Below, one piece after another: positions 10,665 to 30,724 of a stretch of DNA of 32,000 nucleotides. The notes below the pieces were generated by a model, which saw only the letters and a program-made list of their open reading frames with translations, made no database searches and was not told where the DNA came from. The position numbers and the translations under genes were made by a program. Source of the stretch: Cereibacter sphaeroides 2.4.1 (GTDB taxonomy: Bacteria > Pseudomonadota > Alphaproteobacteria > Rhodobacterales > Rhodobacteraceae); the NCBI RefSeq assembly GCF_000012905.2, contig NC_007493.2, positions 1,050,001 to 1,082,000 on the forward strand, read 5' to 3'. Each line of letters begins with the position of its first letter. The stretch's first letter is position 1.

Positions 10665-10838
10665 GCCGCGCTGCCCGTGCTGCCCCAGTGTCAAGCTATC
10701 GCTTGCGCTGCGGGACCTGTCCATCCTCCAGCGCAGGCCATGCTGTCGCGCAGGGCCGGACGGCGGCTCACCGCCGCGCGGTCACGCTCTGGGGCGGCCT
10801 CGCGCAGCAGAGCTGCGGCCGGGGTCTTTGCGCGTGGC

Positions 10839-13715: not shown

Positions 13716-13878
13716 TTCGCGGGTCTAGCACATCTGGCGGCACACCGGGGAGTCCGGGTCTCGGCGTCCCCGGTGTTACAGCAGCTTTTCGCCGAATGAA
13801 AGAAAAAGACCCAAGGATCGGCTTGCTGGCTGCGTCATGAGAGGCGAACGCTATTCACTCCAAGGAGGAACTTCACAG

Positions 13879-14571
13879 ATGAATATTGCCAAGGTCCTGA
13901 TGCTCTGCACCGCTCTCGTCCTGCCGGGACATGTCCTCGCGGACACGCCGCGCCTGACCGTGACGGGGGAAGGCGCGGTGGCCGGTCGTCCCGACATGGC
14001 CACGATCACGCTCGGTGTGACGACCGAGGCCGCCACCGCGGCGGAGGCGATGGCCGGCAACAGCGAGAAGCTGGGGCGGGTGCTGCAGCGGCTGAAGGAG
14101 GCCGGGCTCGAGGACCGCGACCTGCAGACCTCGGGCCTGTCCCTGAACCCGAACTGGACCCAGAGCCCGGAGGGCGAGGCGCCGCGTATCGCGGGCTATG
14201 TCGCCTCGAACATGCTGACGGTGCGGGTGCGGGCGCTGGATCGGCTCGGGGCGGTGCTCGATCAGGCGGTGCAGGATGGCGCCAACACGCTTCAGGGCGT
14301 GAGCTTCGGGCTCGTGGATCCCCAACCGGCCATGGACGAGGCCCGGCGCAAGGCAGTGGCCAGGGCCCAGGCGCGGGCGCAGCTTCTGACCGAAGCGGCG
14401 GGCGTGCAGCTTGGCCCGATCCTCGAGATCCGCGAGGGCGGCGACGGCTATCGGCCGCCGATGCCGATGTATCGCGAGGCGGCCATGGACGCGCCGGTGC
14501 CGATGGCCGAGGGCGAGATCGAGACGACCGCGCAGGTGACGCTGGTCTACGAGCTGAAACAACAGCAGTGA
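13879..14571 (+). CDS. SIMPL-domain (DUF541, BP26/Omp28-like) periplasmic protein
   Basis: AAGGAGG lies 10 nt upstream of the ATG at 13879. A signal peptide MNIAKVLMLCTALVLPGHVLA is present. TVTGEGAVAGRPDMATITLGV and the C-terminal GEIETTAQVTLVYEL are typical of SIMPL proteins. Confidence 0.8.
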   Translation: MNIAKVLMLCTALVLPGHVLADTPRLTVTGEGAVAGRPDMATITLGVTTEAATAAEAMAGNSEKLGRVLQRLKEAGLEDRDLQTSGLSLNPNWTQSPEGEAPRIAGYVASNMLTVRVRALDRLGAVLDQAVQDGANTLQGVSFGLVDPQPAMDEARRKAVARAQARAQLLTEAAGVQLGPILEIREGGDGYRPPMPMYREAAMDAPVPMAEGEIETTAQVTLVYELKQQQ

Positions 14572-14616: not shown

Positions 14617-15909
14617 TCAGGCCGTCGCCTTGGCGAGGGCCTGATCCAGGTCCGCGATCAGATCGTCGGCATCCTCGATTCCGATCGAGATGCGCACGAC
14701 ATTCGGCGCTGCGCCGGCCGCCACCTGCTGCTCGGGCGTGAGCTGGCGATGGGTGGTGGAGGCCGAGTGGATCACAAGCGACCGTGTATCGCCGAGGTTG
14801 GCGACATGGCTGAACAGCTGCAGCGCATCGACGAGCGCCACGCACGCGTCGTAGCCGCCCTTGACCGCGAAGGTAAAGAGCGCTCCGGCCCCCTTCGGGC
14901 AGATCCGCGCGACGCGGCCGTGCCAGGGCGAGGAGGGCAATCCTGCGTAGCTCACGAATTCCACCCGCGGGTCCTGCTCCAGCCAGGCGGCCACCTTCTG
15001 CGCGTTCTCGACATGCCGGGCCATGCGCAGGCTGAGGGTCTCGATCCCCATCAGCGTGTAATGCGCCCCCTGCGGGTTCATGGTCATGCCGAGATCGCGC
15101 AGGCCCACAGCGATGGAGTGGAACGTGTAGGCCATTGGCCCCAGCGCCTTGTGGAAGACGAGGCCATGGTAGGCCGGCTCGGGCTGCGACAGGCTCGGGA
15201 ACTTGTCCGACGCCGACCAGTCGAACTTGCCCGAGTCCACGATCACGCCGCCGGTCACTGTGCCATTGCCGGTCAGGTATTTCGTTGCGGAATGAACGAC
15301 GAGCGTCGCGCCATGCTCGATGGGGCGGCAGAGCCAGGGCGTGGCAGTGGTGTTGTCCACGATGAGCGGCAGGCCCATCCTGTCCGCGATGGCCGAGACC
15401 GCATCGAGATCCGTGATGACGCCGCCGGGGTTGGCAATGGTCTCGCAGAAGAGGGCGCGCGTATCCGAGTCGATCGCGGCCTCGATGGCGGCGGGATCGT
15501 CGAAGTCCACGAACTTGGCCGACCAGCCGAACCGCCTGATCGTCTGCGAGAATTGTGTGATCGTGCCGCCGTAGAGACGTGTCGAGGCCACGATGTTGCG
15601 GCCGGGTGCCATCAGCGGGAAGAGCGCCATGATCTGCGCGGCATGCCCCGAGGAGCAGCAGACGGCGCCCGCGCCTCCCTCCAGCGCGGCCACCCTCTCG
15701 GCCAGAGCCATGACCGTCGGGTTGGTAAGGCGCGAGTAGATATAGCCCACCTCTTCCAGATTGAAGAGACGTGCCGCGTGCTCGGCGTCGCGGAACACAT
15801 AGGCGGTCGTCTGGTAGATCGGCACCTGCCGGGCGCCCGTCGCCGGATCCGGCTTGGCCCCGGCGTGGATCTGCAGCGTGTCGAAGCCGAGTTTGCGGTC
15901 TGAGCTCAT
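14617..15909 (-). CDS. metY: O-acetylhomoserine sulfhydrylase (aminocarboxypropyltransferase), PLP-dependent
   Basis: The N-terminus FDTLQIHAGAKPDPATGARQVPIYQTTAYVF and the PLP-lysine motif HSATKYLTGNG are present. The protein is 430 aa. Confidence 0.88.
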   Translation of the reverse strand: MSSDRKLGFDTLQIHAGAKPDPATGARQVPIYQTTAYVFRDAEHAARLFNLEEVGYIYSRLTNPTVMALAERVAALEGGAGAVCCSSGHAAQIMALFPLMAPGRNIVASTRLYGGTITQFSQTIRRFGWSAKFVDFDDPAAIEAAIDSDTRALFCETIANPGGVITDLDAVSAIADRMGLPLIVDNTTATPWLCRPIEHGATLVVHSATKYLTGNGTVTGGVIVDSGKFDWSASDKFPSLSQPEPAYHGLVFHKALGPMAYTFHSIAVGLRDLGMTMNPQGAHYTLMGIETLSLRMARHVENAQKVAAWLEQDPRVEFVSYAGLPSSPWHGRVARICPKGAGALFTFAVKGGYDACVALVDALQLFSHVANLGDTRSLVIHSASTTHRQLTPEQQVAAGAAPNVVRISIGIEDADDLIADLDQALAKATA

Positions 15910-16151: not shown

Positions 16152-16499
16152 TCAGAAGAAGTCGGCGCTTCCACTTTCGACCCTCTCGCATTCCTGGCCG
16201 GCGAGGGCAGTGGCTAGGCTTCTCTGGCGAACTGCGGCCACCGCATCGTGAATGTTGACCATGGGCTCCATGCCCATGTCCTGTCCCAGACGGCCGACAT
16301 AGGCGGTCAGTCCGGCCAGAGACTGAACCAGATCGTCGAGGCTCTGAAGGATCTCTCCGCCGCCCAGGCGCCCTCCGGCGGCCGCGATGTCGTGTCCCAC
16401 GGCCTCCTCGATCTCGCCACTCATGGCGGCGAGCCTGTCGAGCTGCACCGCCAGCCGTTCGAGAACGACCCGCAGAGGCGTTGTCTGCGGACCGCTCAT
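16152..16499 (-). CDS. Small (115 aa) helical protein ending the chemotaxis operon; positionally like S. meliloti orf10/cheT
   Basis: The ATG overlaps the stop of the preceding cheY (ATGA at 16496-16499). The sequence is helix-prone and contains the motif EILQSLDDLVQSLAGL. No family can be assigned by eye. Confidence 0.55.
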   Translation of the reverse strand: MSGPQTTPLRVVLERLAVQLDRLAAMSGEIEEAVGHDIAAAGGRLGGGEILQSLDDLVQSLAGLTAYVGRLGQDMGMEPMVNIHDAVAAVRQRSLATALAGQECERVESGSADFF

Positions 16500-16885
16500 A
16501 GAGCGCCTACGACAGCTTGGATGGCCTTGCGCATCCCGTCGGTGGTGAAGGGCTTCTTGATGAAGTTGTTCATACCGAGAGACTGGCCCTTTTCGATGAT
16601 ATCACGCGTGGCGGTACCGCTGACGAGGATGAAACCCATCCGCTGCGTGGTTTTGTTCTCGCGGATCCCCTTGAGCAGGCCCAACCCGTCGAGACCAGGC
16701 ATATTGTAGTCGGAAATCACCAGATGCACCGGATTGGCCGCAAGCTGCCGCAGGGCCGAGGCGCCGTCCTTGCAGAAGTCGATCTTCTTGATCCCCAATT
16801 CCTCCAATGCCTGAATGATCAGACCCCGGCTGGTCGACATGTCATCGACCACCATGATCCTAATGCTGTCCCTGAGTGCCACCAA
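16496..16885 (-). CDS. cheY: CheY-type single-domain response regulator (third CheY of the cluster)
   Basis: Receiver signature residues are present: VVDDMS, VISDYNMP, ILVSGTA and IKKPF. The start is TTG at 16885 or GTG at 16882, which overlaps the cheR 3' end. The ATG at 16855 would remove strand beta-1. Confidence 0.85.
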   Translation of the reverse strand: MVALRDSIRIMVVDDMSTSRGLIIQALEELGIKKIDFCKDGASALRQLAANPVHLVISDYNMPGLDGLGLLKGIRENKTTQRMGFILVSGTATRDIIEKGQSLGMNNFIKKPFTTDGMRKAIQAVVGAL

Positions 16886-17777
16886 AGATCTCCTTTCCTG
16901 GTCCGCCCGTCGGCGGGGGTGCGCGCAGGCGGAATGATGTCATGCCAACAGTTTCGAATTGGTGTCTGACCTCGTGCGAAAGCCGCTCGGAATGGCCGAT
17001 GAAGAGATGGCCTCCCGGAGCGAGCGTGCTCGCGAAGCCCCGCCAGATGCGGTTCTGAGTGTCGGGGTCGAAGTAGATCGCGACGTTCCGACAGAATATC
17101 ACATCGAAAGGTCTGGTCACCGGCCAGGGCTTCACCAGGTTCAGCGGCTTGAAAGTCACGAGGGCGCGCAGATCCGCCGACACCTCCCTTCGACCGTCGC
17201 GGTCGGGCGGCCCGAAGTGATGTGCCAGAATCGCATCCGGCAGAGCGGCAAGGCTCGAGGCTGCAAACCAGCCCGCTTGCGCCCTTCCCAGGATCTTGCG
17301 GTCGATATCGGTGGCAAGGATCTTGATATCATAGTGGCCGGCGTCCGGGCAGAGCTCCAGCAACGTGATCGCCATGCTGAAGGGCTCCTCTCCCGACGAA
17401 CAGCCCGCGGACCAGAACCGGACCCGTGCGCCATGTCGCGCCGCGTCCAGCAGGGGCGGCAGCACGCGTTCTGAAAGGAGTTCGAAATGATGTTCTTCGC
17501 GGAAAAAGCGGGTCGTATTGGTGGTCATGCTCGAGATGAACATCGAGCGCTCGTCGCGGCCTTCAGGTCTCGAGATCAGGTCGATATAGGCCGTGAAGCT
17601 CGTCAGGGACAGTTGACGGAGCCGCTTGGCAAGCCGGGCGTAAACCAGCGGCTCCTTGGCGTCAGGCATCGTGAGCCCCGCCTCGGCATGGGCCAGTTGC
17701 GCAATTCGCTGGAAGTCTTCCTGCGAAAGCTGCGGGTCACGGACTGCAGTCGGGGGATGTCGCGGCCAGTATTTCAC
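16860..17777 (-). CDS. cheR: Chemotaxis protein methyltransferase CheR
   Basis: The SAM-binding region is [18 protein letters not shown], followed by [13 protein letters not shown]. The GTG start at 17777 overlaps the cheW stop (GTGA). Confidence 0.9.
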
Positions 17778-18232
17778 ATCATCCGCCTGACGTTCGGCAG
17801 CACTCCGATCAGATCGAGCAGCCGCAGCATCCGCTGGTCCAACGTGATCACGCCTCGCACGAAGGACAAGGTGGTTTCGGAGGCAATCTTCGGCATTGGC
17901 TGGACGGAGGAGGGAGGCAGCGTCAAGATGTCGGAGACAGCATCGACAAGCAGTCCCACGACCTGACCCTCGACCACGGTGATGATGATGACGTGGCGGG
18001 CCTCGGGCTCGAGGGATCCGAGTCCCAGCCGTTCCGCAAGATTGATGATCGGCACCACCGAGCCTCGCAGATTGATCACTCCGATGATATAGGAGGGCGC
18101 GTGAGGCAGAATGGTCGTCGGCGTCCAGCTGCGGATCTCGCGGACGGCGCGGATGTCAATGCAGAATTCCTGGCTTCCGATTCGGAAAGCCACGACTTCT
18201 CGCAGGTCGTCGTCCAGGCTCACGGCCGCCAT
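17774..18232 (-). CDS. cheW: Chemotaxis coupling protein CheW
   Basis: The 152-aa sequence has [20 protein letters not shown] and [13 protein letters not shown], typical of the CheW fold. The ATG lies 1 nt after the cheA stop. Confidence 0.9.
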
Positions 18233-18233
18233 C

Positions 18234-20294
18234 TCAGAACTCCATCGAGAACGTGCCCCCGGAGGTGCCGATGTCCACGGCTTCCTCCGGAGCTATGATC
18301 AGCGCGATGCGTCCGTCGCCCAGGATGGTGGCAGCGGCCACCCCCGGAATGCGGCCGTATCCGTTCTCGAGACCTTTGATCACCACCTGACGCTGGTCAT
18401 GGATGGTGTCGACGACAAGAGCGCAGAGCTTCTGGCGAGCCGTCTCCACCAGAAGTAGAACGCTCTCCTCATAGCTGCGCACGGGCGCGCGAAATCCGAA
18501 GATGGACCCGCAATCGACGATCGGAACCAGACTGCCGCGGATAGCGACCACCTGATCGCCAGATCCCAGGATATGAATGTCGGCGGGGCGCGGGCGCAAT
18601 GTCTCGACGATGGCTGCGACGGGCACCACCATCGTCTGACCGCCCACATCGACCACCATTCCATCAAGCACCGCAAGCGTCAGCGGCAGGCTGATGGTAA
18701 AGGTGGTGCCCACGCCTGGGTCCGAGGCGATGGTGATGCGCCCGCCCAGCGACTCGATGGCGCTCTTGACGACGTCCATGCCCACGCCGCGGCCGGACAA
18801 GTCGGAGACGACGGAGGCGGTGGAGAAGCCCGGCATGAAGAGCAACCCGTCGATCTCCTCTTCCGTCAATTGCGCATCCGGGGCCACGAGACCCTTGCCG
18901 CGGGCGATCTCGAGCACGCGCGGCCGATTGATGCCGCCGCCGTCGTCCTTGATCTCGATGAGCACCCGGCCGGATCGATGGGCTGCGGTGAGCGTGATCA
19001 GTCCGACGGGGGGCTTGCCGAGATGGAGACGCCTGTCTGCCGGTTCGATGCCGTGATCGACCGCATTGCGGATCATGTGCGTAAGCGGGTCGGCAAGCCG
19101 CTCGATGACGGTCTTGTCCACTTCGGTGCTCTCGCCTTCGGTGACCAGCCTGATCTGCTTCTGGGCGATTTCCGAGGCCTCGCGGGCGATGCGCGACATC
19201 CGCTGGAAGAGCGGCTTGATTGCCTGCGCCCGGATGGCCATCACGCTCTCCTGGATTTCCCGCGCGAGGTTGCGGAAGTCATCGAGCCGATTGCGAACAG
19301 GGGAGCGCGGCGGCACGCCCTCGTCCTGAACGCACTGAGAAAGCATGGCCTGATTGATCACCAGCTCGCCCACAATGTTGATCAGGCGATCGACGCGATC
19401 GAGTTCCACTCTTACGGTGGCGCGCGGCGAGGAGGTCCGGTGGTCCTCCGCAGGAGACTTTTTTGCCGCTGCGGGTCCCGAAGCCGGAGGATCAGGTTCA
19501 GGATCGGGCTCGGGATCCGGGTCCGTCCTGGGCGCTTCCATGGCCATCGGGCGGATTTCGAGCCTGCAGAGATCCTCGACGAATTCGAATACTTCGTCGA
19601 TCTGGTGCTCCGGTTCATCCGTTTCGAGCGTGAGATGCCAATCGAGCCAGCTCTCTTGCCAGTCGAGAGCGTCGAAATCCGGCAGACGGGACCGATCCAG
19701 CCGCACCTCCATCCGGCCGAGGTCGCTCAGGACGCGGAACAGGATGCTCGTATCGTTTCCGCAGGCATAGAGGGCGCGTGTCGGGCTGAAGTCGATCGAG
19801 TAGCAACCCGATTGCCCCTCGTCCGGAGCCGCCGCCGGCAGATCGAGATCCAGCGGCATCGGCACGAAGCCCAAATCCTCTGCATCGGCTTCCCCAGCCT
19901 CTTCCTCTCCCGCCGCTTGTGCGAGCTGCGCTACGAGATCATCGGGATCGATGGTCGCTGTCTCGGATCCTGTCCGGGCCGCCTGCAATAGATCGGACAG
20001 TCGATCCGCGGCCTTGTGCAGTAGGGCCAGAAGTGGAGGATCGGCGGAAACGCGACCGGCGCGAAGGGCGTCGAGCGTCGTCTCGAACTGGTGGGCAAAC
20101 CTGACGAGCGCGTCGAGCTTGAACGCCCCGGCGCCCCCCTTGATCGAGTGGACGGCGCGGAAGACGGCGTTTACCGTTTCGTCGTCATGCCCGTCGTCCA
20201 GCATATCCTCGATACGATCGAGCCCCTCGTTGAGGGCCTCCATGAGATCCTCGCACTCGACGAAGAAGGCGCTGCGAATATCGCTTTGATCCAT
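18234..20294 (-). CDS. cheA: Chemotaxis histidine kinase CheA
   Basis: Domains seen are Hpt ([12 protein letters not shown]), N-box ([12 protein letters not shown]), G1 (DDGGGIN), G2 (GRGVGMDVV) and a C-terminal CheW-like domain. The inter-domain linker contains [13 protein letters not shown] (about 19487-19528). I prefer the ATG at 20294 ([11 protein letters not shown]) to the upstream start at 20348. Confidence 0.92.
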
Positions 20295-20301
20295 GATGCC
20301 C

Positions 20302-20670
20302 TCACGCGACCGCCACGCGCCGCAGGGCGGAAACCAGCTTCGCTTCATCGAAAGGCTTCACGATCCACGCGGTTGCACCTGCCTCGCGCGCTTTGGCCTT
20401 CAGCTCGGCCGCACTTTCGGTCGTCAGCACGATGATGGGCAAGGCCGAATGCTGCGGTTGCTCACGGACTGCTCGGATGAAGCCGAAGCCGTCCATGCGC
20501 GGCATGTTGATGTCCGTGATGACGGCATGAGGCTTGGCCGCCTCCAGCTTTTCGAGCCCGTCGAGCCCGTCGATGGCGAGATGAACCTCGAAGCCGGCCT
20601 GCATCAGAGCTTCTCGCAACAGTTCCCGGATGGTGCGGGAGTCGTCGATGGCAAGAACGGTCAGCGGCAT
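20302..20670 (-). CDS. cheY: CheY-type response regulator immediately upstream of cheA
   Basis: This 122-aa protein has AIDDSRT, VITDINMP, IVLTTES and VKPF. Its ATG at 20670 overlaps the STAS ORF by 10 nt. Confidence 0.9.
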   Translation of the reverse strand: MPLTVLAIDDSRTIRELLREALMQAGFEVHLAIDGLDGLEKLEAAKPHAVITDINMPRMDGFGFIRAVREQPQHSALPIIVLTTESAAELKAKAREAGATAWIVKPFDEAKLVSALRRVAVA

Positions 20671-20945
20671 GATCCTTGATCCTCCTGAAACTCTTTGGGG
20701 TCCACGCCAAGGCGGGTGACGTCGTCCGTGAAGGCGGGCGACATGGGCTGACATGTGAATTGGTGACCTTCCGCGCGCCACTTGGCGGCAGCGGCAAGAA
20801 GGAGCTGAAGCGCCAGGCCACCGACAAAGCTGACCTGTCCGGCCGCCAGGCATGTGTCTCCGGGCGGCATGCTGAGCAGAGCTGCATAAAGTTGTCGCGC
20901 CCCTTGGTGGTCGAGACGTGCGGGAAGGTCCAGACGGTTCTTCAT
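20661..20945 (-). CDS. STAS-fold (STAS_2/MlaB-like) small protein; positionally equivalent to S. meliloti CheS (orf2)
   Basis: This 94-aa protein follows the pattern LDLPARLDHQGARQLYAALL...GQVSFVGGLALQLLLAAAAKWRAEGHQF, typical of non-phosphorylatable STAS domains. Its ATG overlaps the cheD stop (ATGA). Confidence 0.6.
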   Translation of the reverse strand: MKNRLDLPARLDHQGARQLYAALLSMPPGDTCLAAGQVSFVGGLALQLLLAAAAKWRAEGHQFTCQPMSPAFTDDVTRLGVDPKEFQEDQGSCR

Positions 20946-21541
20946 CTCGGTTCCTTGATCGGATCGGGCATTTCGGCGTTGTTATGTCGGTCGAAGAAGG
21001 TGACGTCGCCGGCGCCACCCTGAAGGCGGAATTGCGGTTGTTCGTTCGGCACCACATCCTCGCTGCCCAAGAACATCTGCTGGACGCGCCCCGTCTTGGG
21101 CCAGAACCGGATGCGCCTGGCCCGATTGCCCCCCAGACTGTGAGCCGTGCAGCGGATCCCCTCATCTTTGAGATAGCGCCGGGCGAAAGCAGCATTTGCT
21201 TGACCGATCGCCCCCAGCTGCGGCGTCATCATTGCGCCGCCGAAGATCTTGGCTTCTATCCGCTGCCGGGCGGCGCCCAGCTTGAGAAGCGCATTGATCA
21301 GCAGTTCCATTGCATGGGAGCCGTAACGGAGGTGCTGGGCATCTTCGACGTCGGCTGAAGGCAACAGGAAGTGGTTCATCCCCCCCACGCCGGCCACCGG
21401 ATCGCACATGCAGGTGCAGATGCAGGACCCAAGGATCGTCGCATAGACCTCGTTCGGGGATGAGGAGGCAACACAGCTTCCTTGGGTCACATGCGTGATG
21501 CTTATCTGGCTGGCTGAAGGACTGTCGTCGCAACGGGTCAT
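20942..21541 (-). CDS. cheD: Chemoreceptor glutamine deamidase CheD
   Basis: The CheD catalytic region ILGSCICTCMCDPVAGVGGMNHFLLP is present. The protein is 199 aa. Confidence 0.9.
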   Translation of the reverse strand: MTRCDDSPSASQISITHVTQGSCVASSSPNEVYATILGSCICTCMCDPVAGVGGMNHFLLPSADVEDAQHLRYGSHAMELLINALLKLGAARQRIEAKIFGGAMMTPQLGAIGQANAAFARRYLKDEGIRCTAHSLGGNRARRIRFWPKTGRVQQMFLGSEDVVPNEQPQFRLQGGAGDVTFFDRHNNAEMPDPIKEPR

Positions 21542-21663
21542 GGGTGGGGCTCGCAGGTGCAGAGCAGAGGTCCGGGCGGCCTTGAGAGCATATTCATGTC
21601 AAAAGTCCTCCCATCCGGGCTCTGCCCGCGCGAGCGCCCTGGAGTTATGTGGCGTCGCCGCTG

Positions 21664-23976
21664 TCAGGGGGGGGTGGGGCGGTTGCGCTTGGCAGGAGCG
21701 TCCAGGTGAAACTGCTGCACCGTCTCGAAGAGCGCGTTGGCGCTCGTCGTAAGCGACTCGCTTGCGGCGGTCGCCTCCTCGAGACGCGCCGCATTCTGCT
21801 GGGTTGACTGGTCGAGGTTGTTCACCGCGCAGTTGATCTCCGCGAGAGACACAGACTGCTGCCTCGACGACACGGCGATATCGGAGACCAGAGTCGAGAT
21901 TTCGGAAACCGAGGATACGATCTGCTTCAACGCGTCACCCGTCTTTCCAACCAGATCCACGCCGCGCCGCACCTGGTTGCCGCTCTTCAGGATGAGGTCC
22001 GTGATCTCTCTCGCAGCTTCGGAAGACCTTTGAGCGAGCGCCCGCACTTCGGAGGCGACGACCGCAAATCCGCGGCCGGCGTCTCCTGCCCTGGCGGCCT
22101 CTACGCCGGCATTGAGCGCCAACAGATTTGTCTGAAACGCGATGTCGTCGATCACTTTCACGATCGAGGTGATCTTGTCGGATGAGGCGGCAATCATGTC
22201 CATCGCTGCCACTGTCTCGACGACGACATGCCCGCTCTCCTCAGCGTTCGCCCGCGCGTCGGCGACCACCCGATCTGCTTCTGCGGCGCCGTCCGCAGCG
22301 GACCGGACCGAAACTGTTAGCCCGTCAAGCGCTGCCGCTGTCTCTTCCAGAGTGGCGGCGGTGCTTTCCGTTCTTTGAGCCAGAGATTGTGCAGCGGAAC
22401 TGATGTCTCGGGCTTCGTTGCGGATGCTTTCAGCGGCAGAGATCACGTCTTCGACGAGAGAGGCGAGCCCTTGCAGGGCGCTGTTGAAATCCGGGCGCAG
22501 GGCTTCGAAGGGTTCGGGAAGCGGATGATCCAGACGGGATCCGAGATCACCTTGGGCAAGCTGCCGAAGCGCTGAAATCAGCCGCTCAGGTGCCGGCGGA
22601 GGCTGGTCCGCAGCGGCAGTCGTCGGTGCCTGCGCGTACTGGTGGCGGATCTCCGTCACTAGGACCAAGTTGCCGCCGCCCGGTCGTCGCAGGATCGAGA
22701 TGCCGACCTGCACCTGGTCTGAACCATAGCCCTCTTGGCTCAGGAAACTGCGCCCTTCGCCGTCCCGTTCGATCGCCGCAAGGAGTTCGGCACTGTCCGG
22801 CGTTGCCTCGAGCAGGGAGCGCAGCGAGGCCCCCGAGGATCCGAAGAGCTTCGCAAAGCCGTCGCTCGCCTTTATCATCTGACCTCTGATGTCATAAGTC
22901 GCGGCGATGGCTTCGCGAATGACCCCTTGGAGGAGGAGGTCAAGTTGTGTCTCTTCGGTCCGGTCGGTGAAACTAAGGACCTCGGCACCCGTTGCGCCGA
23001 CGGGAGCCCGTGTCACCTGATATTGGCGTCCCCCGATCGCCAGGGACATCGTCCTGCCTGTATGGTCCGGCCAAGCCCGTGCGAGATCATGGTGAAGACT
23101 TGCAACCGGTTGACCTTCGAGAAGTGGCTCCGGCAGGCCCGCAACCACCTGCCGCGCGGGGTGGTTCATCATGAGCACGCGACGATCGCTGGCGACGAGG
23201 ATCCAGGGGGCTGGGAGGGCGTCGAGTGCCATGGCTCGGCTATGCGCGGCCTCGAACTGCTCCCGCTCGCCCTGCAGAGCGGCGGACAGGGCATCGATCT
23301 CGTCCGCAAGCGTTGGGATCGACAGCTCGATCCGCGTCATGGCGGTGGCGTCGGGTCTCTGGTTGTTCTTGATCCGCCGGGTCGTCTCGATGAGCAGCCG
23401 CTCGGTCTCTTTTCGGCGCCTCCAGAGATGCCCCGCAATCCCCATTGAGATCATCAGGCCCGCGACCAGTGCGGTTGCCGGCATCAGCAATGCGTAGGAG
23501 CCATTCAGCGCGGGCAGAGACACGGCAAAGACGCCGGCGAGAGAGTCGTCCCCCTCGCGGGTGACCGGGATGGCAATGGAGGTGCCGCCCTTGGCCTTCA
23601 CGGGAGCCCCCGCGGTCATTGCGCTCAGCGCTTGGGCCTGCAGGTTCTCGGCGCCGGCCAGATCCGCCGGCATCGAGGCAATGACGCGTCCCTCCACATC
23701 CATCGCGAGAGCCGAGAAGGTTTCGCCCGGATAAGTTGCGGCGGCCGCGCCGAACAGTTGCGACAAACGATGACCATCGCGGAAGGCAAGGGCCGCGCGC
23801 CCTTCGGCCGCAATCAGCCTTGAGAAGGCCTGCGTCTGTTGTTCCGTTGCGCGTAGCGCCCCTTCGTGGTTGAGCCAGAGCGCGGTTGCGATGCCGAGCA
23901 ACATGGGCAAGGGCATACCCAGAAGCACCAGAGGCTGCTTGAAGCGCCATAAGCGCGAAGGGTCGGTGCGGTTCAT
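21664..23976 (-). CDS. Transmembrane methyl-accepting chemotaxis protein with a periplasmic domain, two cytoplasmic PAS-like modules, HAMP and an MCP signalling domain
   Basis: Two TM segments are present ([20 protein letters not shown] and [25 protein letters not shown]). PAS-like stretches are [28 protein letters not shown] and [23 protein letters not shown]. The receptor tip is intact: [41 protein letters not shown] prefer the ATG at 23976; the TTG at 24063 is possible. Confidence 0.88.
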
Positions 23977-24082
23977 GCGGCTATCCCATGTATTGCCTGA
24001 CGGCGAGCTCTGGCCTTGGACCTTGCCTCGGTTGTGCAATTCTTGGCGCTCACCGCTTTCCAACTCGTGAAGGCTGGTGCGA

Positions 24083-25870
24083 TCAGAACAGAACGTCCAA
24101 GATGTCGTCCGCGGGCGGCGCGGTCGTCTCTGAGACCTCCTCTGCCGGATTCACGCCGAGATCCCGCAGCAGGAGATCATGCACCAGACGCTCTGCGGCC
24201 ATCGTGTAGCCTGCGCGGATCCGTTCGAGCGCGTCTCCTGTGGCTGTGGCGTTCAGGTCCCCGTCCAGACGGTTGGCCCATCGTTCCAGAGCGGGGGCCA
24301 TGGTGAGCAGGTCGGCAAATGCCGCGGAGTGGCCATCCAATGCAGCAATGCCGGTGGCCACGTCCCGCTCCGCCAGCCGGCGCTCCCGTTCGACCGTGGC
24401 ACTCGTCTGGAGGATCCCGGCCTCAATCCCGGACAGCAGCGAGAAGACCCGGTCGCCGGCACCTGTGAGATCGTGCAGATCCTGCTTGAACGGCCCTTCG
24501 AGTTCGACGGCCGTAATGACGGCTTCGTCGCTCATCGCGGAGAGGCTTCGGGTGATGCTCCCCAGACGTTCGGCCGATGTGGAGGCCAGTTCCCGCAGCT
24601 GGAAGGAGATCTCGCGCAGGGCCAGCGCCTCGTCGCCGAGCTGCACGCAGGCGATGACGGCGTTCAGTCCGATCATGCTCATCCGCTCTTCGACCCCGGA
24701 CATGCGCTCGAGAATAGGGAGCAACTCGGCCAGTCCGCTGGAGAGGTTGCGAGCCACCGACACGAGGCGCGTCTGCGCGGTTCGGCATTCGTCGAGGATC
24801 GCCTGAAGTTGCTGAAGATGCTGTTTGAGGTTATGGCGCGGCGATGTTCCTACACGTCCGCTGATCCTGCCGATCTCCGCGGTCGCCTGGCCTGAGTCGC
24901 GGAGGGCGGATCGGGCCGTCACGATCGCGGCCGCATGCCGTTCGTGCGCGTCGCGCAGATGGGCTGCGGCGAGCGCCAGCGTGATCCGCGCCAGCGCTCC
25001 GTCTGCCGTCTCCTGCGCTGCCGTGCCGTCCATCATGTCGGCCACATGTTCCAACCGTTGCCGCGTCGTGTCGCCGATCTGGAGCGACAGCACGGCCGTG
25101 GTGACCGCACGGCGGAACTCGTCGCCATGGGTCATGAGGATGCTTCCGTCTGCCGTGGTACGCGTCAGATCCTTCTCGAAGGCATCCATGTCGAGACGCA
25201 GGCCTGCGAGCGCAGGACCGAGCTGACGGCGCAGGAGGTGTGACAGGTTGCCGGCCTCGGCCGAGGCCAGGTGCAGTCTGCGCGCCATGTGCTCGACCGC
25301 TTCGGTGATCTGGCCGATCGTATCGCCTGCCTCCATCACCTGGGCCGTGGCCGCCGTTGTGAAGACTTCCAGACTGGAATTCTGGCCCGCGAGCGTCGCC
25401 ACCGTCACACGGGCATTGAGCGCGACGATGGACATGGTACGGATGACCTGACGCATGACGCTCAGGTCCGTGCCCAGGGTTTCGGCCGCGGCGGAGAGGG
25501 TTTCGATCCTTTCGAGGAGCGGGCCGCTGTTGGCGGCGAAGAGGGCGGCCCGTTCCTCGAGACCCGCAGCGTCGGCGCTCGCTTGGGCGAACTCTCCGGC
25601 ATCGGCGACCGCTGCCAGTTGCGCCAGAGGAGCGGACAATCGGTCGAAGCGGGAGATGGCCCGTTCGAGGCTGGCGCCAGCTCGAAGGAAGGCCTTCTCT
25701 GTGGCGCTGGCGAGGCCGGACACGCGGCTGGCCGCCTTGCGCATCGCTGGCGTCGAGACCCTGCGTCGGCCGTTGGCCCTGTCGAAGGTGCCCTCGCCAG
25801 GCGGGGCGACAGGGCCAGGCTGGTGGGCCGTCGCCGTAGCTTCACCTGGGAGCGGAGTAGAAAGCGCCAT
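24083..25870 (-). CDS. Soluble 595-aa all-helical receptor-like protein (TlpS/IcpA-like) with degenerate MCP tip motifs
   Basis: There is no hydrophobic TM segment and no HAMP domain. Two tip-like motifs ([24 protein letters not shown] and [32 protein letters not shown]) align with the canonical [30 protein letters not shown], but most invariant residues are replaced. The ATG is at 25870; an alternative Met is at residue 43. Confidence 0.7.
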
Positions 25871-25973
25871 TCGGGAACCTGTTTGCTGGGGGCGGGACAG
25901 AAGCCGGTGCAGCCGGCGAATGCGGGGAGGGCAGGCAGCTCGGGCGTCTCGATCGTGGGATCAAGGGCGCGGG

Positions 25974-27656
25974 TCAGGCCGCATGGTCGGTGGCGTGGCG
26001 GCGAAAATCCGCATCAAGGTCGTCGCCATTGCCGTCCAGATCGAACTGGAAGCCGCCGGGAGACTGCGTCACCGGACGCGATTTGGCGGAACGACGGGGC
26101 AGCTCCGAGCGGTTGGGAAGCTGGGCTGTCGGGAGGCTTTCCTGCGACGGGACAACCTCGGGGCCCCTGTCGGTCGTGAAAAAGCCGATTGCTGTCCGCA
26201 GCTGTTCGGCCTGTCCGGCCAGCTGGCCGGCCGTCGCAGACAGTTGCTCGGATGCGGTGCTGTTGCTTTGGGTGACCTGATCGAGTTGCTGGATCGCCGT
26301 GTTCACCTGTGCCACGCCGGCCGCCTGCTCCTGCGCGGAGGTCGAGATCTCGAGCACGAGGCGGGCCGTCTCCTCGATGTCCGGCACGAGCTGCGAGAGA
26401 CGCCCGCCGGCGGTCTGGGCCGCCTCGACCGTCGCCGCGGAGAGGACGGAAATCTCGGTTGCCGCGGCGCGGCTGCGCTCGGCAAGCTTGCGCACCTCGG
26501 CCGCCACCACGGCGAAGCCGCGGCCATGCTCCCCGGCCCGGGCGGCCTCGACGGCGGCATTGAGCGCGAGGAGATCCGTCTGGCGCGCGATCTCCTGCAC
26601 GATGCCGATCTTCTGCGAGATGGTGCGCACGGCCTCCACCGCCTCGACCATCGTCGTGCCGCTCTCGTGGGCCGCGAGCGCCGACTGCCGGGCCCGGGAC
26701 TCGGTATCGGCGGCATTCTGCGCCGATTGCTTGATGTTGGCGGTCATCTCTTCCATGGAGGAGGAGGCCTGCAGCGTGGCGCTGGCCTGTTCGGCGGCCC
26801 CCTGACTCAGTTTCACGGCCGTGGAGGACATCTCGTCGGCGCCTGCGGCCACGGTGCGCGTGGATCTTGCGACGTCGTTCACCACCGTGCGGAGCTTCGT
26901 CACCATGCCGTTCAACGAGGCGATCAGATCGCCGATCTCGTCTCGTTGCGACTGGGGCTCGGTCTGGGACAGATCCCCCGCGGCGACGCGCTCGGACAGG
27001 CGCAGCGCCCGTTTCAAGCCGGTGGAAAGGGTTACCACGATCCAGCTGCCGGCTGCGGCAACGAGAAGGATGTTGGCAAGGAAGGCGCCCAGAACCGTGA
27101 GGCGGCTGATCTCCTGCTGGCGCTGGGCCTCGGCCGACGCGTCGGTCAGCTGCTGCGTGTGGTGGGCCAGGAGCGCGCTCAGGCGCGTCTCCATCGCGAG
27201 CCACTGCTCGCGACCCTGCGTCACGACGATCGTGAATCCCTCGTAACCAAGCCCCATCCGCGCCATCTCGATCGCCTTTTCGTCGATCCTGGCGAGTCGC
27301 TCCTTCGCTTCCTGGACCTCGGCGAGGCGGGCGCGCGTCTCCGCATCGGCGGAGGCCTCAAGGGCGGCGAAGGCCTGCTCGCTGCCGGCAGAGGCGGTCG
27401 CCAGGCGGTCGTCGATGGCCCGGCGCTCTTCCTTGGTGCGCGACAGGAGGTAGTTGCGGATCTCGCGCTGTGTCTTCAGCCGGTTCTCGATCAGCTGGTA
27501 AGTCATCTCCACCTGCTTGACCTTGGTGTGCACGATGTCGTCGAGCGAGGCGCGGATCTGGTCGAGGTCGCGCAGGGCCACCATCTGCCCGCCTCCCGAG
27601 ACGAGCAGCACGGCGAGGAACACTCCGGCGAGCTTCAGCTTGATGGACAGTCTCAT
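25974..27656 (-). CDS. Transmembrane methyl-accepting chemotaxis protein (periplasmic four-helix-bundle type, HAMP, MCP signalling domain)
   Basis: TM1 is [20 protein letters not shown] and TM2 is [25 protein letters not shown]. The HAMP region is [13 protein letters not shown]...[15 protein letters not shown]. The receptor tip is intact: [40 protein letters not shown]. Confidence 0.9.
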
Positions 27657-27744
27657 CGCTACAGGGATCCTTCTTGTCGGGGGCGGGAGGTGGCCCGCGA
27701 TTCGGGACGCCGGGCGCAGACGGTGCGGCCGGCGGGGCCTTGCC

Positions 27745-28113
27745 TCAGGCGCCGGCCACCTTCTTGACGACGGCCAGAAGCTGAGCCTGATCGAACGGCT
27801 TGATCATCCAGCCGATGGCCCCGGCCTCCTTGGCCTGCGCCTTCAACGTGTCCTGCGACTCCGTCGACAGGAAGACGATGGGCACGCCCTTGCCCTCGGG
27901 CAGGGTGCGGAACTTGCGGATGAAGCCTATCCCGTCGAGGCGCGGCATGTTCTGATCGGTCAGGATGGCATCGAAGCGCTGGGCCGTGGCCTTCTCGAGC
28001 GCATCCTGCCCGTCCACCGCCTCGACCACCGTATAGCCGGCGCCGACGAGGGTCAGTCGCACCATCTGCCGGACGGAGGGAGAATCATCCACCGCGAGGA
28101 TCGTCTTGCTCAT
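27745..28113 (-). CDS. cheY: CheY-type response regulator (first CheY of the cluster)
   Basis: This 122-aa protein has [22 protein letters not shown] and IKPF. Its ATG overlaps the stop of the upstream STAS ORF (ATGA at 28110-28113). Confidence 0.9.
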
Positions 28114-28439: not shown

Positions 28440-28771
28440 GGCAGGGGCCTCGGCTGATTGCTTCCTCCCTGCCGTTCTGGGGCCCGAACCCATAAGGTTT
28501 CCCTAATCCTGATCGCCGAATGCCTAAAATGCGCATGGCCCTTGCCGCGCCCTCCGCCGGAAGAGGGAACCAAAGATTGTGCGACCGGTTGAGTTCGCAC
28601 ACTCGACCAAGATGGGGATCAGGCGTGACGGACAGGAATGGCGAGAGCGGCCGCATGCGGCCCGCCCGCGCATTGCGCGCTCCGAAAGGACCGGACTCAG
28701 AGGCCAACCGGCAGGGCGTGGCAGCAGCGACAGGAGCGCAGGACAGGCGCGACGGGGGCGAGGAGGCGCTG

Positions 28772-30724
28772 ATGCGGCTGGCCGACGCCCGCGTCGCCAT
28801 CGAGGGCGTCAATCTGGAGATCGACGGCGGGCGCTTTGCGGCGAAGGTGGTGGCCGGTTGGGAGGTGGCGGTCGAGGCCGACATCTTCTGCGACGGGCAT
28901 GACAGCATCGACGCGGCCGTGCTGCACCGTCAGCGGGGCACCGATGACTGGATCGAGGTCCGCATGGAGTTCCTCGTGAACGACCGCTGGCAGGCGCACG
29001 TCACCTTCGCCGAGAACGCCTTCCACGAGCTGACCTTCCTCGCCTGGCGCGACCTCTACACCACCTGGCGCAAGGAGGTGGCGAAGAAGCTGGCCGCTGG
29101 CCAGAAGATCGATCTCGAACTCGAGGAGGGGCGCAGGCTCCTGCAATCGGTCGAGACCGCCGGAGCGGAGGATCGCGCCCTCGTCGACCGCATCCTCGGC
29201 GAGGACGGGGCGGATCAGGAGGCGGGCGCCCGCTTCGCCCGGATGAGCTCTCCCGAAGCGGTGGCGGCGATGAAACGCTGTGCGCCGCGCACCAATCTCA
29301 CCTGCTACAAGATCCTGCCGATCTTCGCCGACCGCGAGGCCGCGGCCTTTTCGGCCTGGTACGAGATGATGCCGCGGTCGCAGTCGGACGATCCGGAGCG
29401 GCACGGCACCTTCGACGATGTGATCCGCAAACTGCCCTATGTGCGGGATCTGGGCTTCGATGTGCTCTATTTCACGCCGATCCACCCGATCGGGCGCGTG
29501 AACCGCAAGGGGCGCAACAACAGTCTGACGCCTGCGCCGGACGATCCGGGCTCTCCTTATGCCATCGGCAGCGAAGAGGGCGGGCACGATGCGATCCATC
29601 CCGAACTCGGCGATTTCGAGAGCTTCGGCCGGCTGGTCGAGGCCGCCCATGCCCATGGGCTCGAGATCGCGCTCGATTTCGCGATCCAGTGCGCGCCGGA
29701 CCACCCCTGGATCCGCGAGCATCCGGAATGGTTCGACTGGCGGCCGGACGGCACGATCAAGTTCGCCGAGAACCCTCCGAAGAAATACGAGGACATCGTC
29801 AACGTCCATTTCTACCGCGGCGCCCTGCCGGAACTGTGGTATGCGCTCCGCGACGTGGTGCTGTTCTGGGTGGAAAAGGGCGTGAAGATCTTCCGGGTGG
29901 ACAATCCCCACACGAAGCCCTTCCCGTTCTGGGAGTGGATGATCGGTGAGGTGCAGTCGCAGCATCCCGACGTGATCTTCCTCGCCGAGGCCTTCACGCG
30001 CCCCAAGGTGATGAAGCGTCTGGGCAAGGTGGGCTACGGCCAGAGCTATTCCTACTTCACCTGGCGCAATACCAAGGCCGAGCTCATCGACTATCTCACC
30101 GAGCTCACCACCGAAGAATGCCGGCACTACATGCGGCCGAACTTCTTTGCCAATACGCCCGACATCAATCCGGTCTATCTCCAGCATTCGGGGCGGGCGG
30201 GGTTCCGGGTGCGGCTCGCGCTGGCCGCGACGCTCGGGGGCAACTACGGGCTCTACAACGGCTATGAGATCTGCGAGGCGACCCCGGTGCCGGGGAAGGA
30301 GGAGTATTTCAATTCCGAGAAATACCAGCTCCGCGCCTGGGACTTCGACCAGCCGGGCCATATCCAGGATGACATCCGGCTGATGAACCACATTCGCCGC
30401 ACCCATCCTGCGATGCGCGATTTCACCCGGCTGCGCTTCTACGATGCGCACAACGACTCCGTGCTGGCCTATGGCAAGAGCACCGAGGACAAGCAGGATT
30501 TCCTGCTCTTCCACGTCAACCTCGATCCGCACGCGGCCCAGACCTTCGAGTTCGAGGTCCCGCTGTGGGAGTTCGGGCTGCCCGACGATGCCTCGGTCGA
30601 GGTCGAGGATCTGCTCAACGGAAATCGCTTCACCTGGCACGGAAAGTGGCAGTGGCTTGAACTCGACCCGCAGACCCGCCCCTATGCGGTCTGGCGGCTC
30701 TACGCGCCGGGAATGCCCAGATGA
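28772..30724 (+). CDS. glgE: Alpha-1,4-glucan:maltose-1-phosphate maltosyltransferase
   Basis: The N-terminus [35 protein letters not shown] is typical of GlgE. GH13 motifs are [30 protein letters not shown] and FLAEAFTRP. The ATG at 28772 follows AGGAGG at 28761. The 84-codon upstream extension from 28520 is rejected. Confidence 0.88.

Follow-up and report, generated by a model that had tools for sequence, protein, structure and literature searches.

Does the chemotaxis operon in this 32,000-nucleotide stretch of Cereibacter sphaeroides 2.4.1 (contig NC_007493.2, positions 1,050,001 to 1,082,000; this whole stretch is the window, and coordinates below refer to it unless another genome is named) hide a CheZ-like phosphatase among its receptor genes? 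The question is raised by an open reading frame (ORF) of 595 residues on the minus strand (24083-25870) that lies between two genes for methyl-accepting chemotaxis proteins (MCPs). A first-pass annotation had noted three short resemblances to Escherichia coli CheZ in its translation: a D267/Q271 pair within residues 263-276 (motif 1, 25043-25084), the string QDLHDLTGA at residues 463-471 (motif 2, 24458-24484, minus strand), and the C-terminal ADDILDVLF (motif 3, 24086-24112). It had proposed a soluble, receptor-array-type protein with a concealed CheY-P phosphatase or CheY-docking activity in a pathway thought to lack CheZ. All three strings and their coordinates are exact, and the E. coli CheZ sequence that was quoted is correct, being identical to chain Z of PDB entry 1KMI.

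As judged from gene order and homologues, the ORF encodes the orthologue of TlpS in a cheOp1 operon of the Cereibacter type, and hence a new member of a known family, TlpC/TlpS, that is mechanistically unexplained. The protein consists of two tandem copies of the MCP signalling hairpin (~120+120 residues each), and motifs 1 and 3 are real hallmarks of the family. Sequence and fold comparisons indicate that it is not a homologue of CheZ, its resemblance to CheZ being at most an analogy, and it should not be annotated as CheZ-like.

Membership in the TlpC/TlpS family and the comparison with CheZ

The closest homologues of the window protein are from Cereibacter and Rhodobacter (55-69% identity), and the arrangement of the window operon is reproduced in Cereibacter azotoformans (locus L001), including the tlpS gene between two MCP genes. 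The cheOp1 operon of Rhodobacter sphaeroides is published as mcpA, mcpB, tlpS, cheD, cheX, cheW1, cheR1, cheY1, cheY2 and cheY5, is activated by CtrA and reportedly steers the Fla2 flagella (PMC7277832). Because the window matches the published gene content of cheOp1 and the gene order of the C. azotoformans locus, and because the closest homologues come from these genera, the ORF (24083-25870) is assigned as tlpS. Scans with Pfam and NCBIfam gave the window protein no match beyond a HAMP hit at E=0.29, which we reject as noise, and the family as a whole has no model in either database.

To gauge the extent of the family, a profile built from the first 19 homologues was run at E<=1e-30 against 1.84 billion representatives (clusters at 50% identity). 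About 1,580 representative proteins were recovered, and among the matches listed the profile alignment was near full-length in 150 of 150 (548-651 residues). Species-representative genomes were scanned in addition with the pattern GDx[TA]RQR[LIV]EH, giving at least 435 family loci, 80 of which were kept for the analysis of gene order. The hosts are mostly Alphaproteobacteria (Devosia, Rhodobacterales, Hyphomicrobiales, Sphingobium, Phenylobacterium and Acetobacteraceae). Members with intact motifs also occur outside this class, in Litchfieldella anticariensis (Halomonadaceae, locus L054) and in a metagenome-assembled genome labelled Terriglobia (locus L079), and these could reflect horizontal transfer or a binning error.

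Most family members occupy the position of tlpC, last in an operon of the form cheY-cheA-cheW-(mcp)-cheW-cheR-cheB. Genes for CheA and CheW, followed by cheR, cheB (recognized as a REC hit) and the family gene, are present in about 59 of the 80 kept loci, and the remainder are mostly cut by contig ends or have a divergently arranged che cluster. In Cereibacter ovatus (locus L018) the Pfam order is CheY-CheA-CheW-CheW-CheR-CheB and then a 575-residue family member. This equals the published cheOp2 gene set (cheY3, cheA2, cheW2, cheW3, cheR2, cheB1 and, at its end, tlpC; PMC7277832) with the family member in last place, and the family is therefore that of TlpC and TlpS. At the same C. ovatus locus the stop of cheB (8814-9929) and the start of the tlpC-type gene (9926-11653) overlap by 4 nt, an arrangement that hints at coupled translation of the two proteins.

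The window protein shows full-length homology to this family (~550-610 residues), carries all of its hallmark blocks (the N-terminal E..F...G..L, tip 1, LQ.GD.TRQR.EH, tip 2 and YTM..ER..H) and is encoded inside a che operon at the tlpS position of cheOp1. TlpC and TlpS of Rhodobacter (Cereibacter) sphaeroides belong to the same family, aligning over their full lengths and having every hallmark motif in common with the window protein; the TlpS-type proteins of C. sphaeroides and C. azotoformans are about 63-66% identical to it and the TlpC-type member of C. ovatus about 27%. Conservation was assessed on an alignment of 149 members, in which the mean column identity is 26% and most members are about 20% identical to the window protein, and motifs and tails were counted on 164 representatives or 239 sequences. 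Only six columns of the 149-sequence alignment are invariant: Q264, D267, Q271, R272, N403 and E560.

TlpC has been described as a soluble protein of about 580 residues without a transmembrane (TM) segment, a HAMP domain, a methylation region or the canonical glycine hairpin (PMC3964821, PMC6829392), a description that matches the features of the window protein. It is reported to sit in the cytoplasmic chemoreceptor cluster, to interact with itself (PMC3964821, PMC6829392), to bind CheW4 and CheA3 (PMC6829392) and to have no obvious adaptation sites, the cluster becoming diffuse upon deletion of tlpC (PMC6829392, PMC3964821). The idea of a soluble protein of receptor-array type is supported by these properties of a homologue; a relationship to CheZ is supported by no profile or fold test. 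A literature search that included the motif strings found no published description of the duplication, of the LQ.GD.TRQR.EH block or of the tail.

Profile searches gave no similarity to CheZ above background. Pfam CheZ (PF04344) did not match the whole protein or residues 239-300 and 442-595 at E<=10, and matched none of 19 homologues at E<=1. Alignment of the family with enterobacterial CheZ by hhalign returned a probability of 0.1%; the CheZ alignment used is shallow (22 sequences, 78-100% identity, taken from the 120 best matches, none of them below 71% identity to E. coli CheZ), and the diverse case is covered by the Pfam model. Restricting hhalign to the motif recovered the register of mALQiGD~TRQ against MAQDFQDLTGQ at a probability of 0.13% (E=0.45), and the tail by itself reached 1.3% against CheZ. 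The only BLASTP match with CheZ is the unconserved motif 2 (E=0.09), no CheZ chain appeared in a PDB profile search even at E<=10, and 1KMI is not in the top 50 Foldseek matches of two AlphaFold2 (AF2) models against the PDB. With hmmscan, BLASTP, hhalign (both global and motif-local), the PDB profile search and Foldseek all negative, membership in the CheZ family is rejected.

The likeness that remains is one of general construction. CheZ (PF04344; 1KMI) also has an all-helical bundle, with D-x3-Q in one of the helices, followed by a flexible linker and a C-terminal acidic-hydrophobic peptide that ends in F, and the geometry in which bundle, linker and tail succeed each other is alike in the two proteins; it differs in having 214 residues rather than the 595 of the window protein, which is demonstrably MCP-derived and does not have the AxxFQ part of the CheZ signature in full. 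Within that signature, AxxFQ-DxxxQ, the DxxxQ is invariant in the family, and the block preceding it reads A/S-L-Q-I-G, in which only the Ala and the hydrophobic residue at -2 correspond. Motif 2 matches CheZ QDFQDLTGQ at six of its nine positions, a score reached by 4 of 5000 shuffles. None of its columns is conserved among the 149 homologues, however, and the match is therefore a coincidence; the thought that it might be a degenerate second active site is ruled out for the same reason. The comparison of orthologues thus retains D267, Q271 and the tail and discards the QDLHDLTG string. Strong conservation of the two retained motifs is as expected of a functional site and of a tethered peptide for docking.

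The premise that alphaproteobacterial systems of this kind are CheZ-less and free of phosphatases is itself outdated. CheT of Sinorhizobium meliloti is a DXXXQ phosphatase that is reported to speed the decay of CheY1~P and to bind CheR (PMC12654446), CheA3 of R. sphaeroides dephosphorylates CheY6-P (PMC6829392), and true CheZ is present in some alphaproteobacteria (PMC7750401).

Duplicated MCP hairpins and the predicted topology of the bundle

Homology to the MCP signalling domain with its hairpin tip is seen at the level of the family profile only. A PDB profile search aligned the cytoplasmic domain of the Thermotoga maritima MCP (2CH7) to family profile positions 287-532 at E=1e-15, with Tsr also matched, and MCPsignal (PF00015) was weakly matched in 6 of 19 homologues and stayed below the Pfam threshold for the window protein alone. 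The top Foldseek matches of the two AF2 models against the PDB are MCP cytoplasmic domains, and neither Foldseek nor the PDB profile search returned anything but MCPs. When the N-terminal half (residues 40-288) was aligned with the C-terminal half (residues 289-540), hhalign gave a probability of 94% (E=1e-7) with the tips superposed, and both halves also match a tip profile made from MCPs of the same operons (tip 1, probability 83%, E ~1e-5; tip 2, 94%). The protein is read as a tandem duplication because its halves align tip on tip and because each matches the profile of the operon MCPs, so that two signalling domains are present in one chain, as in DosM of Vibrio cholerae. Its arms, about 120 residues long, have the same length as those of the MCPs in the sampled operons.

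The first tip (residues 146-171; 25358-25435, minus strand) was located by hhalign and coincides with an AF2 turn at 160-164; it has the form xALNARV...F170 and is degenerate across the whole family. The second (residues 397-428; 24587-24682, minus strand), located by the PDB profile search and hhalign, has the near-canonical family consensus LNA..KCARLG.EGRAL.VIA.ELR, in which N403 is invariant and G412, L418 and L425 are at least 97% conserved in the 149 sequences. The two degenerate tip-like motifs recognized in the first-pass annotation are confirmed as this internal duplication, and both flanking MCPs do have canonical tips. Compared with the canonical MCP signalling domain (PF00015; 2CH7, 1QU7), the window protein has a homologous hairpin tip and coiled-coil arms; it differs in having two hairpins per chain, an extra loop at 342-347, and a distal polar block at tip+115 that MCPs do not have.

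The absence of a TM segment and of a HAMP domain had been rightly seen, the maximum of a 19-residue Kyte-Doolittle window being 1.45 and the only HAMP match being the noise hit at E=0.29. The methylation consensus [ASTG][ASTG]xx[EQ][EQ]xx[ASTG][ASTG] does not occur in the window protein and occurs four times and twice in the flanking MCPs; the mean is 0.26 per family member versus 5.0 per operon MCP signalling domain. Residues 1-39 (25754-25870, minus strand) are variable, align poorly among homologues and are predicted to be disordered. Their predicted local distance difference test (pLDDT) values are below 50 for residues 1-19 and below about 55 through residue 30, the block mean for residues 31-40 is 77, and DSSP assigns no helix before residue 40.

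With the 149-sequence alignment, AF2 (pLDDT 91; predicted template modelling score 0.76) drew helices at 40-159, 165-286, 291-341 and 348-522 and then three short helices up to residue 570. Helix pairing was also assessed by covariation, using mutual information with average product correction on 239 sequences, averaged along anti-diagonals. Antiparallel signal was found only at i+j ~325-333 (helices H1-H2), ~569-577 (H1-H4 and H2-H3) and ~827-839 (H3-H4), with parallel signal at offsets of about 250 for H1-H3 and H2-H4. The H3-H4 band implies a turn at about 412-416, and there is no signal at i+j ~687, which would be expected from the long hairpin of AF2. The continuous-helix topology of AF2, which conflicts with the covariation, was not adopted on that ground. 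The covariation pattern suggests a single-chain four-helix bundle that runs up-down-up-down, so that its two tips lie together at one end, a mimic of the MCP homodimer, the two halves being separated by an indel-tolerant loop at 286-290.

The distal polar cluster, the C-terminal tail and their possible roles

The most conserved element of the family is the block [LM]Q.GD..RQR.EH, present in 161 of 164 representatives and 236 of 239 sequences. In the window protein it covers residues 259-276 (25043-25096, minus strand) and contains motif 1. Four of its residues (Q264, D267, Q271 and R272) are among the invariant columns, and L263, G266, R270, E274 and H275 are at least 90% conserved in the 149 sequences. 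A DxxxQ by itself is no rarity, occurring in 70% of shuffles of the window protein (1.18 expected), and the protein has a second one at residue 183 that is not conserved. The D267/Q271 pair picked out by the first-pass annotation is thus invariant in the family; the downstream D278, which had likewise been matched with CheZ, shows no conservation. In 136 of 152 scorable members (164 scanned) the block follows the Asn of tip 1 by 115 residues. The possibility that motif 1 is a diverged form of the MCP motif LDxxTQxN was discarded, as the positions differ (tip+115 versus tip+93/100); hhalign did not reach that far.

Three further conserved elements may be grouped with motif 1 when the helices are modelled as above. 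Motif 1 itself would be part of helix 2, at a distance of 11-19 residues from the distal end of the bundle. The N-terminal motif with conserved E58, F61, G65 and L68 on helix 1 (residues 57-68; 25667-25702, minus strand) would pack against it, as indicated by the H1-H2 band at i+j ~327 and the pair 54-277, and the L-Q-x-A-Q-L-x-D-A segment on helix 3 (residues 300-308; 24947-24973, minus strand; conserved L300, Q301, A303, Q304 and L305) would face it, as indicated by the H2-H3 band at i+j ~576. These registers imply contacts of E58 with R270, F61 with G266, G65 with A262, R272 with Q304 and H275 with Q301, and a heptad reading would put both D267 (position e) and Q271 (position b) outside the core. 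In this model the distal end forms a dense cluster of near-invariant polar residues, namely E58 from helix 1, Q264, D267, R270, Q271, R272, E274 and H275 from helix 2, and Q301 and Q304 from helix 3. The fourth element, YTMxxERxxH (residues 555-564; 24179-24208, minus strand), lies in the short C-terminal helices; E560 is invariant and Y555, R561 and H564 are conserved at 95% or above. These helices follow helix 4 at the distal end and, as far as the topology predicts their placement, may cap the cluster.

Beyond them, an Ala/Pro/Glu/Asp-rich flexible linker of variable length (residues 571-586; 24113-24160, minus strand) leads to the acidic-hydrophobic tail of motif 3 (residues 587-595, minus strand). 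The linker has many gaps in the family alignment, and pLDDT block means over 571-590 are 78 and 65; AF2 draws it with lower confidence and ends the chain with a short tail helix at 588-594. The tail is conserved in the family, with a consensus of acidic residues followed by L(-5), D/E(-4), D(-3), I/L/F/V/M(-2), L/F(-1) and F(0). A strict pattern, [LIVMF]-x-x-h-[LFMI]-[FL]-COOH (x being D/E/A/G/S/N/Q and h hydrophobic, also Ala or Cys), is found in 163 of 239 sequences, and a terminal F in 182 of 239. The tail is kept in about 70-75% of family members, about 25-30% being without it. In the 80 loci the ORFs that end in the tail pattern are family members only (36 so labelled), plus one read-through ORF (locus L048) that ends in the family gene and is labelled CheR.

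An [DE]LDxxF core is common to the family tail (e.g. TDLDALFF in Devosia), to the tails of cheOp2-type MCPs and to the C-terminus of the first window MCP (25974-27656). As this core is thus found in ordinary receptors too, the tail looks like a docking peptide of the receptor class rather than a CheZ-specific dock for CheY, possibly one for CheR/CheB, whose genes precede the family gene. Acidic-hydrophobic C-terminal tails are a generic docking device, that of SSB being an example, and the pentapeptides that bind CheR and CheB are defined by x-W-x-x-F, with an aromatic residue at -3. The tail was rejected as a classical pentapeptide of this kind because its position -3 is Asp. Among 104 MCPs of cheOp2-like operons, about 85 have the C-terminus D[DE]LDx[DE]F[ST]RRGAA-COOH; we know of no described function for this ending, the terminal AA of which resembles degrons of the ClpXP type.

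Taken as a whole, the account that we favour, and consider reasonably probable, is that of a TlpS orthologue built as an MCP-derived, duplicated soluble array protein with a distal polar site and a docking tail. By analogy to MCPs and to the published interactions of TlpC, the tip end, and mainly the better-conserved tip 2, would insert the protein into CheW/CheA arrays, in which it could act as a non-adapting component that tunes or scaffolds signalling. The polar cluster would be the functional site of the family, for a ligand, an ion or a partner protein. A flexible tether of about 15-25 residues would run from the distal end to the tail, h-D-D-h-[LF]-F-COOH, and the tail would serve as a docking peptide keeping a chemotaxis partner near the array and the polar site; CheR/CheB is somewhat more likely to be this partner than CheY. 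Several points weigh against this account. No experiments on TlpS itself were found in the literature, and whatever is said of function is carried over from TlpC, whose identity to the window protein is only about 27%. In the Cereibacter TlpS branch, tip 2 is degenerate (G415A, R416L), making array insertion less certain for the window protein than for the family. In addition, AF2 draws residues 348-522 as a single unbroken helix of 175 residues with no U-turn at tip 2, and the z-scores of the covariation are modest (2.3-3.5).

The readings of TlpS/TlpC as a phosphatase, as a tether for CheR/CheB or as a ligand pocket are not mutually exclusive. As a convergent CheZ-like phosphatase, the protein would capture CheY~P or the CheB receiver with its tethered tail and insert D267 and Q271, which would sit on the outer face of the four-helix bundle some 15 residues short of its distal end, into the receiver active site, in the manner of CheZ D143/Q147 and S. 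meliloti CheT. This seems unlikely to us, and we judge it equally unlikely that the whole TlpC/TlpS family is a convergent, array-embedded response-regulator phosphatase composed of an MCP pseudo-dimer, a DxxxQ and a CheY/CheB-docking tail. The invariance of both residues and their predicted heptad positions outside the core speak for this reading, but the pairs predicted from covariation, E58-R270, F61-G266, R272-Q304 and H275-Q301, make much of the block appear tied up in a polar network between helices. The family consensus A-x-x-[IV]-x-D-x-T-x-Q echoes A-x-x-F-Q-D-x-T-x-Q of the CheZ signature (PMC7750401), yet canonical MCPs, both neighbours included (LDQVTQ and LDQSTQ), carry a conserved DxxxQ (LDxxTQxN) without any phosphatase role. 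Similarly, the tail L-D-D-h-[LF]-F-COOH agrees with L-D-S-L-G-F-COOH of CheZ at Leu -5, acidic -4, hydrophobic -2 and Phe 0, and a flexible linker precedes it as residues 169-199 do in CheZ (PMC7750401), but ordinary MCPs of the same operons have the tail core as well. CheT provides a precedent for a non-homologous DXXXQ phosphatase in alphaproteobacteria (PMC12654446); similarity to CheZ or CheT was nevertheless absent by hmmscan, hhalign and Foldseek, and the window operon already has a CheT-like DxxxQ protein of its own. In favour of the reading, a tblastn search (E<=1e-5) with E. coli CheZ and with that CheT-like ORF, of low sensitivity for divergent proteins, found neither in cheOp2-like operons. 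If the whole family were such a phosphatase, the signal-termination step that cheOp2/cheOp1-type pathways are missing would be provided, and it would be understandable that R. sphaeroides cannot do without TlpC.

Two further proposals, each of which we hold to be possible though doubtful, concern the tail and the polar cluster separately. The tail could be the equivalent, in this class of chemotaxis systems, of the NWETF pentapeptide, by which an unmethylated TlpC/TlpS in the array recruits CheR and/or CheB to neighbouring methyl-accepting receptors and so provides adaptational assistance. It is placed like MCP pentapeptides at the end of a flexible arm past the signalling domain, the family is without methylation sites of its own, and the family gene immediately follows cheR-cheB in most loci (with the 4-nt cheB overlap in C. 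ovatus), although the window operon has no cheB and about a quarter or more of the family has no tail. The MCPs of the same operons share its [DE]LDxxF core, but there the F is internal rather than C-terminal, and the tail does not have the aromatic residue at -3 of the x-W-x-x-F pentapeptides. Also in favour, binding of CheR has been reported for S. meliloti CheT (PMC12654446), and the CheT-like ORF of the window ends in ADFF. The distal polar residues (D267, R270, Q271, R272, E274, H275, Q301 and Q304, perhaps with Y555, E560, R561 and H564) might surround a pocket at the pseudo-dimer interface that takes up a metabolite of the cytoplasm, an anion or a metal, tentatively analogous to the dimer-interface ligand site of four-helix-bundle sensor domains, which would make the protein a true cytoplasmic receptor. 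According to the covariation, these residues would come from three helices at matching heights, where they are flanked by the conserved small residues G65, A262, G266, A303 and A308, and they lie at the end of the bundle at which input modules join MCP signalling domains in the established MCP architecture. The cytoplasmic cluster of R. sphaeroides is thought to report metabolic state (PMC2829493, PMC10924463). Pfam, NCBIfam and the PDB profile search gave no similarity to known ligand- or metal-binding families, however, and a non-adapting receptor would be unusual. Finally, the protein could be an extended rod whose opposed hairpins bridge the two CheA/CheW baseplates of a sandwich array, a pure structural stabiliser, which we regard as very improbable. 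V. cholerae DosM (VC1403), likewise soluble with two signalling domains and both part and stabiliser of a cytoplasmic array, has this architecture and role (PMC7534058), and the cytoplasmic arrays of R. sphaeroides are double-layered and their cluster diffuse without TlpC (PMC3964821, PMC6829392). By its published description DosM has a tip at each end, whereas the covariation of the window protein (H1-H4 and H2-H3 antiparallel, H1-H3 and H2-H4 parallel) fits side-by-side hairpins, AF2 disagreeing with both topologies. The two signalling-domain-like halves are here separated by the indel-tolerant loop 286-290, and a rod would leave the invariant polar block and the tail unexplained.

On the favoured account of a duplicated array protein with a polar site and a docking tail, what had been an 'odd receptor' family is given a defined architecture consisting of a duplicated hairpin, a polar block with DxxxQ, YTMxxERxxH and a tethered tail, and from these hallmarks a small set of point mutations and binding assays follows. 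Should the DxxxQ be catalytic, CheZ-type chemistry would have arisen independently a third time in chemotaxis, and here inside the receptor array; should it not be, the site is probably a pocket for cytoplasmic sensing or partner binding, which would also be new.

The operon, its CheT-like ORF and flanking genes

The cheOp1-type operon that surrounds tlpS spans 16152-28113, and all of its genes are on the minus strand, identified in Pfam and NCBIfam scans. It opens with a cheY (27745-28113) and the first mcp (25974-27656), which precede tlpS, and continues with the second mcp (21664-24063), cheD (20942-21541), a second cheY (20302-20670), cheA (18234-20348), cheW (17774-18232), cheR (16860-17777) and a third cheY (16496-16885). 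No cheB was found in the operon by Pfam scans, though cheR and cheD are present, in agreement with the published cheOp1 gene list. The C. azotoformans counterpart of the second window MCP (at ~13416-14300 of locus L001) ends in the pentapeptide-like GWEDF and the window MCP ends otherwise; from this comparison of C-termini, the window strain seems either to have lost the CheR/CheB tether of this MCP or to have it in altered form.

The operon is closed by a CheT-like ORF of 115 residues (16152-16499), which is probably the cheX listed for cheOp1 (PMC7277832). It contains a conserved helix, ILQSLDDLVQSL, with D55-x3-Q59, and has the C-terminus SGSADFF. The NCBIfam CheT model (NF047973) matches it over nearly its full length but weakly (E=0.007), and matches a C. 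sphaeroides homologue at 3e-5, neither match coming anywhere near the curated cut-off of 200 bits; the model gave no match to segments of TlpS. The assignment as CheT rests on these weak matches since a word-indexed homologue search returned only two Cereibacter proteins. Like TlpS, CheT (NF047973) is encoded in che operons of alphaproteobacteria, has no sequence homology to CheZ and carries a conserved DXXXQ in a helix; it differs in being small (profile length 130) and, in the window, encoded by this separate gene. Judged by sequence, the CheT-like ORF is a more credible candidate for a DXXXQ phosphatase than TlpS.

The genes flanking the operon are unrelated to chemotaxis. They encode a GlgE-type maltosyltransferase (28520-30724, plus strand), an O-acetylhomoserine sulfhydrylase (14617-15909, minus strand), a SIMPL/DUF541 protein (13837-14571, plus strand) and a Na+/H+ exchanger with a TrkA-N domain (8796-10724, minus strand).

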